Source: a virus | DNA: 14,337 nt | Virus genome (UHGV): UHGV-1688991 | Strand: one strand, 5' to 3' | Shown here: in pieces, positions 193 to 4,256 of the stretch | Layout of the letters: each line of letters starts with the position of its first letter | Numbering within the stretch: the stretch's first letter is position 1 | The notes under the pieces: generated by a model | The model's database searches: none | What the model was told of the DNA's origin: nothing | What the model saw: the letters and a program-made list of their open reading frames with translations, nothing else | Program-made: the position numbers and the translations under genes

Positions 193-212
193 GGGAGGGT
201 AATTACCCTCCC
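193..212. terminator. Perfect 20-bp palindrome GGGAGGGTAATTACCCTCCC, candidate hairpin terminator between convergent genes
   Basis: Exact self-complementarity read directly. It lies 6 nt after the plus-strand TAA and contains the tape measure stop codon (203-205). The following plus-strand sequence is only moderately T-rich, so terminator function is uncertain. Confidence 0.4.
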
Positions 213-1993
213 ATTCCAGTTCTTCCAATTCTTGTATACCCAACATCGTGAATTACATCAATTCCGGATGAACGAGTGTCGGTAACACTCATTCCTTGTG
301 GGGCACCTTTGAACTCAACGGTGATGGTTCCTTTCGGTTGAGTCGCCGTTCCCTGTTTGATCTGATAAGGGTTATATCCTGAACTGGCCACGCCTGTACC
401 ATACGCACCGTAACCGCCAGCCCCCCACTGCGCAGCGTTTGCGGCAGCAACCGTATCGCTGGCACCATCAGAGAACCACTCAATGATGGGCCTCAGCTTT
501 TCCCACATGTCCTGGAACCATTTCACGATTGGGCCCCAGTTATTGATCACCATCCCCAGCGGCGACCAGGCAAAAACTTTCTTAAGGAGTTCCCAGCCAG
601 CCTCAAAATAAGGACCAATGGTTTCCCAGAGTTTCTTAAAATAAGGTCCGACAACATCCCAGTTAGTGATAATTAATCCCGCAGCCAGGGCAATCGCCGT
701 CGCAATCATGCCAATCGGCGTCATCGACATGATCCTGCTGACAATACTGATGGCACCGCCAACGCCCATCAATCCCAGTTTCAGAATCGCAAGACCGGCA
801 GCAAGCCCGACGACGCCGCGAATAACCCGGGGATTTTCATCCGCAAACTTCGTGAATTTCTCCCCCAACTCCCCCAGCCATTGCGTGATATTTTTGGCGT
901 CACCAGAAAATGCGCCGCCAATAGCCGCAAGGCCGTTAGTTGCGGTCCCCGTCATTGCCTCCCACAGGTTGGACAGCGTACCAAGCTGGGCCTGAACACG
1001 TTTATTCAGGCTGGCCTGTTTATTCATCTTCTGCTGGATCTGATCGTAGCCATCCTTTCCTTTATCGATTAGTGCATTGACCACCTGAAGGGTTTCGGCA
1101 TCATCACCAAATATTGCCTTAAGTACACCTGTTCGCTTAACGTCGGTCAGTTTTCGCAGCTTTGCCAGTTGCCTGAACATGTTATCAAGACCGCCAAAAC
1201 TTCCTTTGCCGTCAGTAAAATCGAGCTGTACCCCGAGTTTCTGGCGGGCCATGATTTTATTGACGTCCCTGATTTTCTTAACGCTTAATCCGGACTGGAT
1301 AACTTTTCGCAGGGCATTACCTGCCGACTCCCCGTTCATCCCCATCTGATCCATCATGACGCTGATGGGGGCAAGGCTCTGTGCAGCCTGAAGACCGTCC
1401 TTGTTCACCATCTTCAGAACAGAACTGGTTTTAGTGAAGAAGGACAACATGTTGGTATCGTCAACGCCCAGATAAAACGCCTTCTGGATAGTGTCGAACA
1501 GCCCCATCATGTCTTCTGACGCCGTTCCGGTAGCATCCTGCATCTTTGCAGCAAACTCAGCAGCCGCTTCCGGTGTTTTTTTCAGTTGTACCGCAAGATA
1601 AGCTGTCGCTTTACCCACACCGCCAAGAATGTTTTCTGCCGGGATCCCCTGACGCACCAGCATCTGCATCATGTTCTGGAAATCAGCCGTTGTACCGGGT
1701 AGCTGGTTACCCAGGCCAATAGCCAGTTTATTGATGTCCTGAAAGCTCTTTCCAACCTCGCCATTCGCATCCATCATGGCGACTTTCAGCCCGGTGGCGG
1801 CGTTTTCCTGATCGGCATAAGATTTCAGGGAAAGCGTCAGACCCGCTGCCAGTCCGCCACCAAGCGCCAGCCCACCCTTTGACGCTTCTTCCGCCTGGCG
1901 TTTAAATCCCCGGATTTTCTTTTGCATTTTCGACAGCGCGGGAGAAAGCCTGTCGACACCGGTGATCAACGCCTTAAGCTCAAATTCAGCCAT
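203..1993 (-). CDS. Phage tail tape measure protein
   Basis: 596 aa; Ala/Gly/Met-rich helical N-terminal part, hydrophobic segments near residue 400, Gly/Tyr-rich C-terminus. Sits directly after the chaperone/frameshift gene, as in contractile-tail modules. SD AGGAGA lies 9 nt upstream of ATG 1993. Relatively short for a tape measure, so may be truncated. Confidence 0.75.
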   Translation of the reverse strand: MAEFELKALITGVDRLSPALSKMQKKIRGFKRQAEEASKGGLALGGGLAAGLTLSLKSYADQENAATGLKVAMMDANGEVGKSFQDINKLAIGLGNQLPGTTADFQNMMQMLVRQGIPAENILGGVGKATAYLAVQLKKTPEAAAEFAAKMQDATGTASEDMMGLFDTIQKAFYLGVDDTNMLSFFTKTSSVLKMVNKDGLQAAQSLAPISVMMDQMGMNGESAGNALRKVIQSGLSVKKIRDVNKIMARQKLGVQLDFTDGKGSFGGLDNMFRQLAKLRKLTDVKRTGVLKAIFGDDAETLQVVNALIDKGKDGYDQIQQKMNKQASLNKRVQAQLGTLSNLWEAMTGTATNGLAAIGGAFSGDAKNITQWLGELGEKFTKFADENPRVIRGVVGLAAGLAILKLGLMGVGGAISIVSRIMSMTPIGMIATAIALAAGLIITNWDVVGPYFKKLWETIGPYFEAGWELLKKVFAWSPLGMVINNWGPIVKWFQDMWEKLRPIIEWFSDGASDTVAAANAAQWGAGGYGAYGTGVASSGYNPYQIKQGTATQPKGTITVEFKGAPQGMSVTDTRSSGIDVIHDVGYTRIGRTGMGG

Positions 1994-2404
1994 GTGTGCG
2001 TTTCTCCTGCTCTATCCTGTTTGCCTGACTGACCAGCAAGGGAATTTCACTGATCGGCATATTCAGCAATTCGAAGGGATTAATGCGCCAGTAACTGGCG
2101 CAGTCAAAGAAGCGATCAGTGAGGTATTCAGCCGTCAGGCCTGGAGGAAAAAACCGGCCACAAGCCACGCCGCTGCATTCAGGTCTGCCGGAGACATCTG
2201 GTCGACAGAGCTTTGCGGCACTTTCGCCAGCCGCACGATGTATTTCGATACCACATGCGCCAGAAGTCTGACGGACTCATCCTGATTCATCTGGTAGGGA
2301 TATCCCAGCTCGCGGACATCTTTCCCGGTGGGCTCATCAAACTCCAGTACGGAGAGTGTCTCGCCATGAGCGGTAATCGGTTTCTTTAACTCAAGCTCTT
2401 TCAT
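1986..2404 (-). CDS. Tail assembly chaperone, predicted -1 frameshift fusion product
   Basis: A second ORF in the -1 frame overlaps the chaperone 3' end and stops at 1986-1988, just before the tape measure ATG. The slippery heptamer T_TTT_TTC lies exactly in the overlap. Confidence 0.5.
2135..2404 (-). CDS. Tail assembly chaperone (short, unshifted product)
   Basis: 89-aa ORF between tail tube and tape measure, the conserved chaperone position. Its ATG overlaps the tube stop (2404-2406). Confidence 0.65.
   Translation of the reverse strand: MKELELKKPITAHGETLSVLEFDEPTGKDVRELGYPYQMNQDESVRLLAHVVSKYIVRLAKVPQSSVDQMSPADLNAAAWLVAGFFLQA
2147..2153 (-). promoter_or_regulatory. Candidate -1 ribosomal frameshift slippery heptamer T_TTT_TTC
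   Basis: Plus strand 2147-2153 is gaaaaaa, so the minus strand reads TTTTTTC. In the chaperone frame the codons are GGT TTT TTC; the -1 frame continues as TTT TTT CCT CCA. Confidence 0.5.
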
Positions 2405-2760
2405 TACTGGTAATCCCCTTCTTCACCGTGGAACTCAAGATCGACCGTGCCTTCTTCGGCATTATGGTTCGCTTCGCCGTGCAGCCAGGCAGACGACAGT
2501 ACATAGACCTGACCGTTCGCCAGCTCGGCAGTGATGGTCATCTCATCAGACGAGGTGATTTTGCTCACCGGAAAATTCTTCGGCACCTTGAAGGTCCCTT
2601 TGACATAAGGTGCACGGTGAGTTTCCTTGCGGTCCACTGAACCGTCCAGGCCGATGATGTCATCATTGACCGTCCTGTTCATGGGCACCTCAATGCCGCC
2701 GGTCAGCGATAGCTGCTGACCGTCAATTTTGAAATAACAGGTTCCCCCGATACGGGCCAT
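2404..2760 (-). CDS. Phage tail tube protein (Mu gpM-like)
   Basis: 118 aa, directly downstream of the sheath gene with start overlapping the sheath stop. Size and position match tube proteins of Mu/SfV-type contractile tails. Confidence 0.75.
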   Translation of the reverse strand: MARIGGTCYFKIDGQQLSLTGGIEVPMNRTVNDDIIGLDGSVDRKETHRAPYVKGTFKVPKNFPVSKITSSDEMTITAELANGQVYVLSSAWLHGEANHNAEEGTVDLEFHGEEGDYQ

Positions 2761-4256
2761 TATGCAGACTCCTCTGAATACTGAAGACGGAACTGGTTAA
2801 CCACGGCAAAGACACGCAACTGGTTAACATAGTCAGGCGGGAACAGCGTGTTCAGGCGGTTCGGATCGCTGGCATCACGCTCCACAACCAGGTACTGCTT
2901 AAACAGTTCGTAGTTTTCCACAATCCCCGCACGCTCGAGCTGACGGTAGGTTGCCAGCAGTTCCCCTTTGATCACCGCCGGGGTGACAATCGCCTGACCG
3001 GGACCAAAGCGGGTACCGTCACTGGCAAGCTTGTGACGCCCGTACTTACTGGTAATGACGGATTTCAGTTTGCGCAGTACATACGCGCTGGTATGCAGTG
3101 TCTCACTGTCGAGGTAGCTGTTATCCGCAACCCCGTAAGCGTTTTTCCTGTACGTGGTGACATCACGCTGAGTGCGCAGTACCCCACTTTCGACATACGC
3201 CGTTGCCACGCCATGAGACAGCAGGGTCTGTTGTTCGGTCATCGTGAACCGTTTCCCCTTCGGCGCAGGCAGCATACCCACCAGCTCACCGGTCTGCGTG
3301 GGACGTGCCGGATCGTTGCGAATAAACACCGCTGCGCGGGCGGTACGGCTTGCCGCCAGCTCGTCAGCAGGCGTCTGGGTCTCTTTTTCGTACCCCGCCA
3401 GGGTAATGTGCTGCTGGTTAAACTGGTCACCTGCGGTCACCAGTTCTGACAGCGTGCCGATCTTTGCCGTATACACATGACCATACAGCTGACGCGCATA
3501 GCTCCAGCGACCGCTGGTATCGTTCATCTCGGTCACCAGCGTGTTAACGGAGGCCGTGTCGTTGAATGGCAGGCCGATATAATCAAACGGCTCATCCGCC
3601 ATTGCAGCCACCGCGCCGGTGAGAACAGGAGAGCCCGTTCCGGCGGTCCCCGTCGCCACGGCAATCTGTACGCCCGCTGGCAGCACTTCACCCCCACCAA
3701 AGCCGTAGTAATTGAGGCTGACAGGAATTTCATTCCCGCAAAGCCCCTTATGACGCGCGGTCAGTGTGACCACGCCAGCCGAAGATGAAGCTGTAAACGG
3801 CAGAGTCGGAACGGCATTGATGGCATCTTTGATACTGCTGGCAATCGTCGTGACGTTATCGCCGTTGGTCACCGGAGCCTGCACGCGGGTACGTCCCACA
3901 TAGACATTCACCGTGCCGCTTTCGGTTGCTTCCCCGGTCACCGTCAGCGTAACCGTTGCCGCCGCGCCTGTGGCTTCCGGAACGGCAATCACATACAGCT
4001 CACCAAACGGGTCGGTCTGGCGATAAGCCTCAACCATACGCGCCAGCTGACTTCCCGCACCACAAATCTGGCGTGCATAGTCTGCCGACGGCATCAGCAC
4101 CAGACTGTTGGCAACAATCTCTGCACCGTTATTGGCATGACCAATCAGCAGCGATGCTCCGCTGTCCTGTGCAGTATTCGCCGCCTGGTTATCCATTTCC
4201 GCATAAAACAGCGGAACCAGCGTATTCGACGGAATGGTGTTAAAGCTTATCGTCAT
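2760..4256 (-). CDS. Phage tail sheath protein (Mu gpL-like)
   Basis: 498 aa; size, composition and position upstream of tube match the contractile sheath family. SD AAGGTG lies 6 nt upstream of ATG 4256. Confidence 0.85.
   Translation of the reverse strand: MTISFNTIPSNTLVPLFYAEMDNQAANTAQDSGASLLIGHANNGAEIVANSLVLMPSADYARQICGAGSQLARMVEAYRQTDPFGELYVIAVPEATGAAATVTLTVTGEATESGTVNVYVGRTRVQAPVTNGDNVTTIASSIKDAINAVPTLPFTASSSAGVVTLTARHKGLCGNEIPVSLNYYGFGGGEVLPAGVQIAVATGTAGTGSPVLTGAVAAMADEPFDYIGLPFNDTASVNTLVTEMNDTSGRWSYARQLYGHVYTAKIGTLSELVTAGDQFNQQHITLAGYEKETQTPADELAASRTARAAVFIRNDPARPTQTGELVGMLPAPKGKRFTMTEQQTLLSHGVATAYVESGVLRTQRDVTTYRKNAYGVADNSYLDSETLHTSAYVLRKLKSVITSKYGRHKLASDGTRFGPGQAIVTPAVIKGELLATYRQLERAGIVENYELFKQYLVVERDASDPNRLNTLFPPDYVNQLRVFAVVNQFRLQYSEESA

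Follow-up and report, generated by a model that had tools for sequence, protein, structure and literature searches.

A programmed -1 ribosomal frameshift very probably joins two overlapping reading frames at the tail assembly chaperone locus of an SfV-like prophage

Introduction

Between the tail tube and tape measure genes of an SfV-like prophage, carried on a 14,337-nucleotide stretch of viral DNA (UHGV-1688991) that was analysed as a whole and is referred to below as the window, two reading frames overlap, and the question arises how the second of them is expressed. An initial annotation, made from the sequence of the window, proposed that both frames are linked by a programmed -1 frameshift at a T_TTT_TTC heptamer, in the manner of the conserved chaperone frameshift of tailed phages. 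Three systems serve here for comparison. In phage lambda, gpG and gpGT result from a -1 frameshift at G_GGA_AAG, according to the summary given in PMC5009743 (of Levin et al. 1993; Xu et al. 2004, 2013, 2014). The same text, citing Xu et al. 2004 and Baranov et al. 2006, has the gp41 chaperone of phage Mu reported to use a -2 frameshift. Phage P2, as outlined in PMC3091744 (citing Christie et al. 2002 and Xu et al. 2004), makes a 91-aa E and a 142-aa E+E' protein through a -1 frameshift at TTTTTTG (T_TTT_TTG), within its FETUD tail operon.

Results

The tail genes and the slippery heptamer

The window is an SfV/SfI/SfII-like prophage (nucleotide identity of 98-99.8%) with a Mu-type tail and an HK97-type head, and sequence matching the region was found in 1099 of 5426 complete E. 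coli genomes, that is, in about one-fifth of them. The tail genes considered here lie on the minus strand, and their assignment in the initial annotation was borne out by profile searches. The 498-aa sheath protein (2760..4256) matches PF04984/PF17482/PF17481 and phrog_165 (E=8e-231), and the 118-aa tube protein (2404..2760), encoded immediately upstream of the chaperone, matches PF10618 (E=2e-33) and phrog_185; existing annotations of the SfV type treat the sheath, tube and flanking genes as homologues of Mu gpL, gpM and gp38. The 89-aa tail assembly chaperone (2135..2404) carries PF10109, Phage_TAC_7, over residues 4-86 (E=5e-16; 58.8 bits, the cut-off being 25), matches phrog_166 'tail protein' (E=5e-23) and is labelled 'phage tail assembly protein' in RefSeq E. 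coli records. Next comes the gene of the 596-aa tape measure protein (203..1993; PF10145, E=1e-26; phrog_28 and phrog_17727), whose ATG (1993..1991) is preceded by AGGAG at 2008..2004. A PDB profile search found no relative among solved structures.

Close to the end of the chaperone gene, the minus strand reads TTTTTTC (2153..2147). The zero-frame phasing, GG_T TTT TTC, makes this a true X_XXY_YYZ heptamer, T_TTT_TTC, which occupies codons 85-86 of 89 (Phe-Phe) after a GGT codon. It is located three codons ahead of the chaperone stop, a UGA (2135..2137) situated 9 nt past the heptamer, and the zero-frame product ends with ...VAGFFLQA*. A -1 slip at this site opens an extension of 53 codons and a stop (1986..2147, minus strand; phrog_32181, E=6.5e-41) and gives a 139-aa fusion with the predicted junction ...VAGFFPPGLT... 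(peptide ...AAWLVAGFFPPGLTAEYLTDR). The coordinates and the phase of the two joined frames were as the initial annotation had given them, and the junction that it predicted is identical to that of the computed -1 product. It had also placed the end of the -1 frame just before the tape measure ATG; the two are indeed close to each other, but the ATG (1993..1991) comes first, followed after 2 nt by the -1 stop TGA (1988..1986), and they overlap as ATGGCTGA (1993..1986).

Single heptamers are not rare, as nine in-frame X_XXY_YYZ sequences are present in the 4352 codons of the genes of the window, and the element is a prophage, some copies of which are degraded (e.g., that of Serratia symbiotica L027). 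One could therefore imagine that the heptamer and the open -1 frame met by chance, or are the remains of a decayed gene, and that both are unused, only the 89-aa protein being of importance. Of those nine sequences, the T_TTT_TTC at 2153..2147 is alone in lying within the last five codons of its gene and in giving access to a -1 ORF, 53 codons long, which extends to the start of the next gene.

Conservation of the slippery site

The site was compared in 39 SfV/ST64B-like loci, comprising 36 distinct DNAs with protein identity down to 36%, from Escherichia, Shigella, Salmonella, Edwardsiella, Pantoea, Erwinia, Mixta, Lonsdalea, Burkholderia and other genera. A scan of viral contigs provided only copies with an identical chaperone protein, and little added divergence. 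T_TTT_TTY was found at the same codons (Gly/Asn/Arg/Ser-Phe-Phe) in 38 of the 39 loci, the exception being a pseudogene with an early stop, and the 36 distinct DNAs carried either T_TTT_TTC (21) or T_TTT_TTT (15). The codon preceding the Phe pair encodes Gly, Asn, Arg or Ser, yet it always ends with T, and the first Phe codon is always TTT. Synonymous diversity was 0 at the GGT, TTT and TTC codons, compared to about 0.5 at other Gly and Phe codons. Depending on the homologue, the zero-frame stop follows the heptamer at a distance of 9, 24-30 or 60-78 nt, whereas the position of the heptamer is fixed. The slippery site is conserved beyond what the protein sequence would require. The initial annotation had staked its proposal on the retention of the heptamer and of the -1 protein in homologues, and the first of these expectations was confirmed by the absence of synonymous variation and by all loci but one.

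The same layout was observed in more distant phages bearing PF10109, with T_TTT_TTC in Pseudomonas DVM-2008 and T_TTT_TTG in Pseudomonas PG1 and Bordetella PBb002. In Paraburkholderia phage IPK (an UNVERIFIED record), Gly-Phe-Phe is kept as GGC TTC TTC, without the heptamer at that place. Isolated phages, either plaque-forming or inducible, which share the layout are SfV, SfI, SfII, SfIV, ST64B, phiP27, EPP-1 and AH07.

The same 139-aa fusion would also be produced if RNA polymerase stuttered on the T-run and added one U in some transcripts. The signal is a homopolymer run (T6 in the window, T7 in the ST64B/P27/SfIV clade), and a deficit of UUUUUUU was described in E. coli genes, whichever of the three frames is considered, which may result from transcriptional slippage or indel mutation (PMC4066793). 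The occurrence of a T5 run in two IMG/VR copies shows that this stretch is prone to indels, either in the DNA or in its sequencing. On the other hand, what has been kept is the phased X_XXY_YYZ pattern, including the third-position T of the variable preceding codon, rather than mere run length, and T_TTT_TTG occurs in the same phase in P2 and in more distant relatives. Moreover, E. coli RNA polymerase as a rule slips efficiently only on runs of about 8-9 or longer, which likewise speaks against this mechanism. We consider transcriptional slippage a very improbable source of the long product, and slippage of the ribosome the preferred one.

Conservation of the -1 frame

In all loci, 50-57 codons of the -1 frame follow without interruption, and its end coincides with the tape measure start or lies a few nucleotides from it; in most homologues, the -1 stop and this start overlap in the ATGGCTGA manner. 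The product is also conserved as a protein, as seen in two-frame tblastn matches down to 39% identity and in 36 loci. Relatives with only 36-45% identity have in common the extension motifs [YF]W[RK][ILV]NP[LF]EL and A[NV]RI[NE], and W106, P110, R130 and I131 are invariant in the alignment of the long product. The second expectation set beforehand, namely, conservation of the -1 ORF at the protein level, was thus likewise borne out. A chance juxtaposition or a decayed gene is difficult to reconcile with a -1 ORF that stays free of stops and retains its motifs across genera to 36% identity, always ending at the tape measure start, with frozen synonymous sites in the heptamer, and with the presence of the layout in isolated plaque-forming or inducible phages; we give this explanation almost no weight.

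Another possibility is that the -1 ORF is a separate gene (1986..2168, 60 aa), translated independently from a GTG at 2168. An ORF listing of the window includes this GTG-initiated frame, and the segment is known as a separate CDS in one phage record, as a 'hypothetical protein' and as the stand-alone family phrog_32181. However, the GTG, which lies in the -1 frame 15 nt upstream of the heptamer, is not conserved, and 27 of the 36 distinct homologues have no ATG, GTG or TTG in this frame between the preceding stop and the heptamer, a stretch that in one homologue measures only 15 nt. No Shine-Dalgarno sequence was seen by eye ahead of GTG 2168, and the first in-frame ATG past the heptamer in the window is codon 30 of the extension, beyond the most conserved motif. 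The downstream ORF appears to have no translation start of its own, and its expression as an independent gene is, in our opinion, scarcely credible when compared with the frameshift.

RNA structure around the site

No conserved stimulatory structure 5-9 nt past the heptamer was predicted by RNAalifold in 20 sequences of the SfV clade (clade 1) and 12 of the ST64B/P27/SfIV clade (clade 2), and the first 47 nt past the heptamer fold no better than shuffles (z=0.31). A GGCC/GGCU hairpin of 3-4 bp at +6 was rejected, being only 71% paired and lying under two overlapping reading frames. A terminator-like hairpin just before the T-run (2167..2155) was rejected as well, since such hairpins occur at chance level (2 found vs 1.1 expected) and its third-position partner varies uncompensated. 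There was no obvious Shine-Dalgarno-like stimulator upstream of the heptamer when inspected by eye, and an Rfam search gave no relevant match.

Further downstream lies an inverted repeat pointed out in the initial annotation. Its position (2101..2085, beginning 46 nt after the heptamer) was given correctly, whereas the central A holds for the plus strand only, the mRNA strand reading GCGCCAGT-T-ACTGGCGC. As RNA, the repeat forms an 8-bp stem with a 3-nt rather than a 1-nt loop, i.e., a predicted GC-rich hairpin, UGCGCCAG-UUA-CUGGCGCA (2084..2102, minus strand), inside the -1 extension at the codons Cys-Ala-Ser-Tyr-Trp-Arg. We agree with the earlier opinion that it is too distant from the heptamer for a canonical stimulator. 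As a conserved stimulator, the repeat was rejected; its sequence is conserved within clade 1 alone, without covariation, and the hairpin is absent in the sister clade ST64B/P27/SfIV. Probably, the hairpin is not the frameshift stimulator.

Within clade 1 (20 sequences), its pairing amounts to 89%, covariation being almost absent. In 19 diverged SfV-clade sequences, hardly any change is seen at its four paired synonymous positions, whereas the loop site and the flanking codons are free to vary. Perfect 8-bp inverted repeats with a loop of no more than 8 nt give 17 overlapping matches, at about nine places, in the window vs about 2.2 matches in Markov shuffles. We find it rather unlikely that the hairpin is a selected nucleotide-level element of the SfV clade and not a by-product of the Cys-Ala-Ser-Tyr-Trp-Arg motif. 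It might then act in mRNA processing or stability, setting the sheath/tube/chaperone message, which is abundant, apart from that of the tape measure, which is rare; or it might serve as a pause site for ribosomes, as a DNA palindrome bound by a protein or, least likely, as a long-range frameshift modulator.

In close relatives only, the hairpin is enclosed by an outer inverted repeat (2047..2122, minus strand) composed of UCACUGAUCG (2122..2113) and CGAUCAGUGA (2056..2047). The minimum free energy fold of the 107 nt after the heptamer reaches -32.4 kcal/mol (z=-4.0). In spite of this strong single-sequence fold, the outer repeat was rejected as a conserved structure, only 63.5% of cells being paired across clade 1.

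Discussion

The phase of the heptamer, its deep conservation and the coding conservation of a -1 frame devoid of an independent start make it very probable that the tail assembly chaperone of this SfV-like prophage is subject to programmed -1 ribosomal frameshifting. The site is real and strongly conserved, but it is an ordinary one, a case of the well-known recoding by which tailed phages make a short and a long chaperone. It is an unannotated member of this known class, with P2 E/E+E' as the closest relative. The 89-aa zero-frame product is the equivalent of P2 gpE, lambda gpG and SfV orf13, and the -1 extension that of P2 E' and of the lambda T segment.

P2 is a proven case, and the fact that it shares with the window both the Pfam domain and the position of the slip site supports the interpretation of the locus as a conserved tail-chaperone frameshift. 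PF10109 is matched in both at profile positions 2-78 of 79 (E=5e-16 in the window, E=1.4e-12 in P2 E+E'), and position 78 corresponds to residue 86 in the window and 85 in P2, at the slip site in either phage. The P2 record has the -1 shift annotated at GGT TTT TTG (frameshift site 19685), so that the slip sequence common to both is GGT TTT TT[G/C], with G in P2 and C in the window. Further likenesses are the gene order (sheath, tube, chaperone and tape measure), the sizes of the products (91 and 142 aa in P2, 89 and 139 aa predicted in the window), the overlap of the -1 stop with the tape measure start, and cross-matches between phrog_166 and phrog_103. The account of P2 in PMC3091744 reports no downstream stimulatory structure, and none is conserved in the window either. 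There are also differences: the last base of the heptamer is G (Leu) in P2 but C or T, giving an A-site Phe codon, in the group of the window; the zero-frame stop follows after six codons in P2 and after three in the window; and the rest of the window tail is Mu-like rather than P2-like. Similarity between the extensions themselves is faint. PF06528 (P2 GpE), which P2 E+E' matches at E=1e-21, had no HMMER match in the extensions of the window and ST64B type even at E<=10, and pairwise BLASTP against P2 E+E' was not significant (E=0.56); in hhalign, the long-product alignment was collinear with P2 E+E' over the extensions but weakly so (E=0.004, probability 8%).

The initial annotation had assigned the site to the lambda G/GT type, which holds for the strategy only; the closest relative, by Pfam family and T-run, is P2. 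With lambda, the window shares the gene slot between the major tail protein and tape measure genes and the predicted production of two proteins with a common N-terminus in a fixed ratio. It differs by the lack of detectable sequence similarity, by another heptamer and other tRNAs, and by a contractile, sheathed tail, that of lambda being non-contractile. The Mu chaperone occupies the same slot as well, and the name of the PF10109 family lists 'E, or 41 or 14'; however, gp41 is a 144-aa protein belonging to another PHROG (phrog_508) and contains no in-frame -1 heptamer, and the frame that bridges the gap between it and the Mu tape measure gene without a stop is the -2 (+1) one. As the conserved extension of the window lies in the -1 frame, the site represents the P2-type solution and not that of Mu.

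From the comparisons presented here we infer that slippage takes place and that it is ribosomal, and the following course of events may be proposed. On the chaperone mRNA, ribosomes would arrive at U_UUU_UUC, where tRNA-Phe would occupy the P site as well as the A site. The majority of them would continue and terminate three codons further on, yielding the 89-aa protein, whereas a minority would slip back by one base, re-pair perfectly on UUU UUU and decode the 53 codons of the -1 frame. The resulting 139-aa product would have the N-terminus of the 89-aa protein and a new C-terminal domain. By homology to P2 gpE and analogy to lambda gpG/gpGT, the shared N-terminal domain might coat the tape measure protein, and the extension might recruit the tube protein; if so, the frameshift would set a fixed ratio of both chaperones. 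In lambda and P2, the long chaperone form is essential. As the start codon of the tape measure gene is overlapped by the -1 stop, frameshifted ribosomes could also couple into translation of that gene.

As to the efficiency of such a process, UUY codons in the A site and heptamers with homogeneous X/Z belong to the classes that were reported to shift more readily in E. coli (PMC4066793, section 17). Alone, UUUUUUC is a weak shifter in E. coli reporters, with 0.12% of frameshifting; this value rose to 0.89% when the IS911 stimulators were present and to 7.6% with the IS3 pseudoknot (PMC4066793, supplementary Table S3).

In all the records examined (RefSeq E. coli, SfV, SfIV, ST64B, phiP27 and others), the approximately 140 nt from the chaperone stop to the tape measure start are either a gap or a stand-alone hypothetical ORF, and in none of the database records examined is the 139-aa product annotated. 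A literature search revealed neither an experiment nor proteomic evidence for this product in SfV-like phages and, in the publications that it covered, no description of the site in these phages. The SfI genome paper mentions neither a frameshift nor a chaperone.

The site leaves the knowledge of frameshifting and of tail assembly unchanged, and its main value is for annotation, as the long form of the chaperone can be marked across SfV-, ST64B- and P27-like prophages and related tailocins. A small point concerns the distribution of recoding among tail modules: P2-type T_TTT_TTN slippage very probably operates in phages with Mu-like tails as well, though Mu itself reportedly uses a -2 shift.

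Gene layout around the slippery heptamer

All genes of the window lie on the minus strand, and those surrounding the site encode the tail sheath (4256..2760, 498 aa; Pfam PF04984, PF17482 and PF17481), the tail tube (2760..2404, 118 aa; Tail_tube, PF10618, E=2e-33), the tail assembly chaperone (2404..2135, 89 aa; Phage_TAC_7, PF10109, E=5e-16, a family described as 'tail assembly chaperone proteins E, or 41 or 14') and the tape measure protein (from the ATG at 1993 to 203, 596 aa; PhageMin_Tail, PF10145, E=1e-26). The PHROGs assignments of these genes match those of Pfam, and both agree with the tail functions proposed in the initial annotation. The chaperone gene ends with ...GTG GCC GGT TTT TTC CTC CAG GCC TGA, in which TTTTTTC (2153..2147, minus strand) is phased T_TTT_TTC from the chaperone reading frame; both phase and coordinates of this proposed link between the two overlapping ORFs separating tube from tape measure were confirmed. 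Past the heptamer, the -1 frame contains 53 open codons, giving a predicted product of 139 aa with the anticipated junction ...VAGFFPPGLT.... This frame had been thought to end just before the tape measure ATG (1993..1991), which is preceded by AGGAG at 10 nt; in fact, it overlaps the tape measure start, its stop codon (1988..1986) lying two bases beyond the ATG in the overlap ATGGCTGA.

Over the 901 bases that surround the site, identity is 98-99% with phages SfI, SfV and SfII of Shigella and E. coli, as well as with Escherichia phages SKA5 and vB_EcoM-689R6, and matching prophages (up to 99.8% identity) were found in 1099 of 5426 complete E. coli genomes. A chaperone protein 100% identical to that of the E. 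coli/Shigella-type window is encoded by an Edwardsiella hoshinae NBRC 105699 contig (L011, NZ_BAUC01000041.1), which suggests recent transfer or contamination. The tape measure protein of the closest E. coli prophage has 611 aa, compared with 596 aa in the window; the two are identical to about residue 480, and the subsequent divergence (window 203-600), with a 20-residue gap, points to a mosaic C-terminus. At 184-215, where the tape measure gene ends and adjoins the next gene, perfect 8-bp inverted repeats (GGGAGGGTAA...) form a cluster.

Conservation of the heptamer and of the -1 extension

A single heptamer of this kind is not rare, as nine in-frame X_XXY_YYZ motifs occur in the window's genes (4352 codons); only that at 2153..2147, however, lies within the last five codons of its gene and opens into a long -1 ORF reaching the next start. 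Two-frame tblastn matches to the predicted fusion extended to 39-43% identity (ST64B, phiP27, SfIV, F1055 and Burkholderia BgVeeders33), and 32 further loci, belonging to many Enterobacterales genera, were obtained in a pattern scan in which each species was represented by one genome. The heptamer proved to be kept, as T_TTT_TTC (21) or T_TTT_TTT (15), at the equivalent position in 38 of 39 loci, representing 36 distinct DNA sequences, the sole exception being found in Serratia symbiotica, in a copy whose codon 24 is a premature stop. The codon preceding the Phe pair specifies Gly, Asn, Arg or Ser, always with T as the third base, and the heptamer position is fixed while the zero-frame stop shifts from 9 to 78 nt downstream. 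Among 19 sequences of the TTTTTTC clade, GGT, TTT and TTC show no synonymous diversity at all (exactly 0), against 0.3-0.7 for the remaining Gly and Phe codons of the gene. We consider such comparative evidence decisive in indicating that the site is more than a chance occurrence.

Several variants of the site were encountered. A second in-frame heptamer, G_GGT_TTT, overlaps the main one in homologous loci L015, L020, L026, L028-L031 and L010, where the preceding codon context is GCG GGT or similar, to form a 10-nt tandem G_GGT_TTT_TTY. In Paraburkholderia phage IPK (L126, PV588664.1, 940-1200), Gly-Phe-Phe is encoded by GGC TTC TTC, devoid of a slippery heptamer, and the conserved -1 extension frame becomes open just 9 nt ahead of the stop of the chaperone gene (...GAG GGC GCG TAA); this points to relocation of the shift site to the last codons, or else to an error in the record, which is flagged UNVERIFIED. 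The chaperone C-terminus ...VAGFFFPG of two proteins from Candidatus Hamiltonella defensa and a related contig (P0119 and P0120) suggests that their T-run at this position is longer, by an additional Phe codon.

The -1 ORF is also conserved at the protein level. It is open for 50-57 codons in all 38 loci and closes no more than a few bases away from the tape measure start, in most cases with an overlap of the ATGGCTGA type; the motifs [YF]W[RK][ILV]NP[LF]EL and A[NV]RI[NE] are kept in both the SfV-type clade (clade 1) and the ST64B/P27/SfIV clade (clade 2), and the alignment of the fusions shows no change at W106, P110, R130 and I131.

Independent initiation of the -1 ORF was ruled out as a general mechanism, since 27 of the 36 distinct sequences have no ATG, GTG or TTG in this frame from the preceding stop up to the heptamer. 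The window's own GTG, at 2168, is not conserved among homologues.

Proposed mechanism and RNA structure

On U_UUU_UUC, tRNA-Phe would occupy both the P and A sites and could re-pair perfectly after a slip of one base. In E. coli reporters, UUY A-site codons, and heptamers with homogeneous X and Z, belong to the more shift-prone classes (PMC4066793, section 17), although bare UUUUUUC is weak: its 0.12% alone rose to 0.89% when the IS911 stimulators were present and to 7.6% when the IS3 pseudoknot was (PMC4066793, supplementary Table S3). It is improbable that transcriptional slippage on the T6/T7 run takes the place of ribosomal slippage, as the feature conserved is the phase of the motif and not merely the length of the run. 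The run, homologous to window 2148-2153, is T5 instead of T6 in two (L094 and L100) of 80 otherwise near-identical IMG/VR viral contigs, and indels in or close to the region have left database proteins P0007, P0112, P0001 and P0116 fused or truncated; the run looks like a hot spot of indels or of homopolymer sequencing errors.

No conserved stimulator was found near the heptamer: the following 47 nt folded no better than shuffled sequences, RNAalifold gave no structure within 5-9 nt of the heptamer in either clade, and Rfam yielded no relevant match. The inverted repeat noted previously does occupy 2101..2085 (minus strand), starting 46 nt past the heptamer; its RNA fold (2102..2084), however, is an 8-bp stem with a 3-nt UUA loop, not a single A. 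We agree that it is too far away to stimulate slippage, and the hairpin is probably not part of the frameshift signal. This hairpin, UGCGCCAG-UUA-CUGGCGCA, falls on extension codons Cys-Ala-Ser-Tyr-Trp-Arg, of which four paired third positions are nearly frozen in 19 diverged clade 1 sequences (TGC 18/19, GCC 17/19, xxC 19/19, CGC 15/17), while the loop third position varies (T4/C9/A5/G1) and neighbouring codons are split about evenly; in 32 distinct near-identical IMG/VR copies, the loop base is the only polymorphism within the hairpin. There is almost no covariation, the helix being 89% paired mostly by invariance, and the hairpin is absent from the ST64B/P27/SfIV clade. It is possible that it represents a clade-specific element acting at the nucleotide level. 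A perfect 10-bp outer repeat, UCACUGAUCG / CGAUCAGUGA (2047-2122, minus strand), encloses the hairpin and gives the 107 nt after the heptamer a fold of z=-4.0; as it is only 63.5% paired across relatives, it is probably restricted to close ones.

Relation to P2, Mu and λ

The closest characterized case is that of P2, in whose record the products are E, of 91 aa, and E+E', of 142 aa and marked '-1 frameshift', and the site reads ...GTC GGT TTT TTG TCG...; this frameshift is restated, after Christie et al. 2002 and Xu et al. 2004, in PMC3091744, which reports no downstream RNA structure for P2. P2-type sites were reported in PMC5009743 to shift 2-3 times more efficiently than that of λ. Both P2 E+E' and the window fusion match positions 2-78 of the 79 in the PF10109 profile, to residues 85 and 86, respectively, which places the slip site at the same domain position, and each matches the other's PHROG family. 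Intermediates are provided by more distant PF10109 phages: T_TTT_TTC occurs in Pseudomonas DVM-2008, and T_TTT_TTG in Pseudomonas PG1 and Bordetella PBb002, in every case with a -1 ORF reaching the tape measure start. Homology of the window and P2 extensions is less secure than the match of the N-terminal domains: the window extension did not match Pfam PF06528 (P2 GpE), BLASTP of the window protein against P2 E+E' was not significant, and hhalign returned a collinear, weak alignment (E=0.004, probability 8%).

Sheath and tube of SfV resemble those of Mu. Mu gp41 (144 aa), however, lacks a -1 heptamer; unlike in the window, the frame left open across its gap is the +1/-2 one, in keeping with the -2 shift that PMC5009743 reports for this phage. 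λ G/GT, to which the site had initially been likened, has the strategy in common with it, and not the sequence.

No frameshift is annotated in any of the records examined for SfV-like phages and prophages. In RefSeq, 141 nt stay unassigned between the genes named 'phage tail assembly protein' and 'tape measure protein', the SfV record lists the chaperone gene as 'orf13: unknown', and one phage record gives the -1 ORF as a separate hypothetical protein. Judged from sequence comparison, both the observation made in the initial annotation and its interpretation are correct. It is well supported that the temperate myoviruses of the SfV/ST64B/P27 group possess the tail-chaperone frameshift that is conserved in long-tailed phages, here of the P2 type. 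The site carries no annotation in current records, and its presence would be unsurprising to a specialist.
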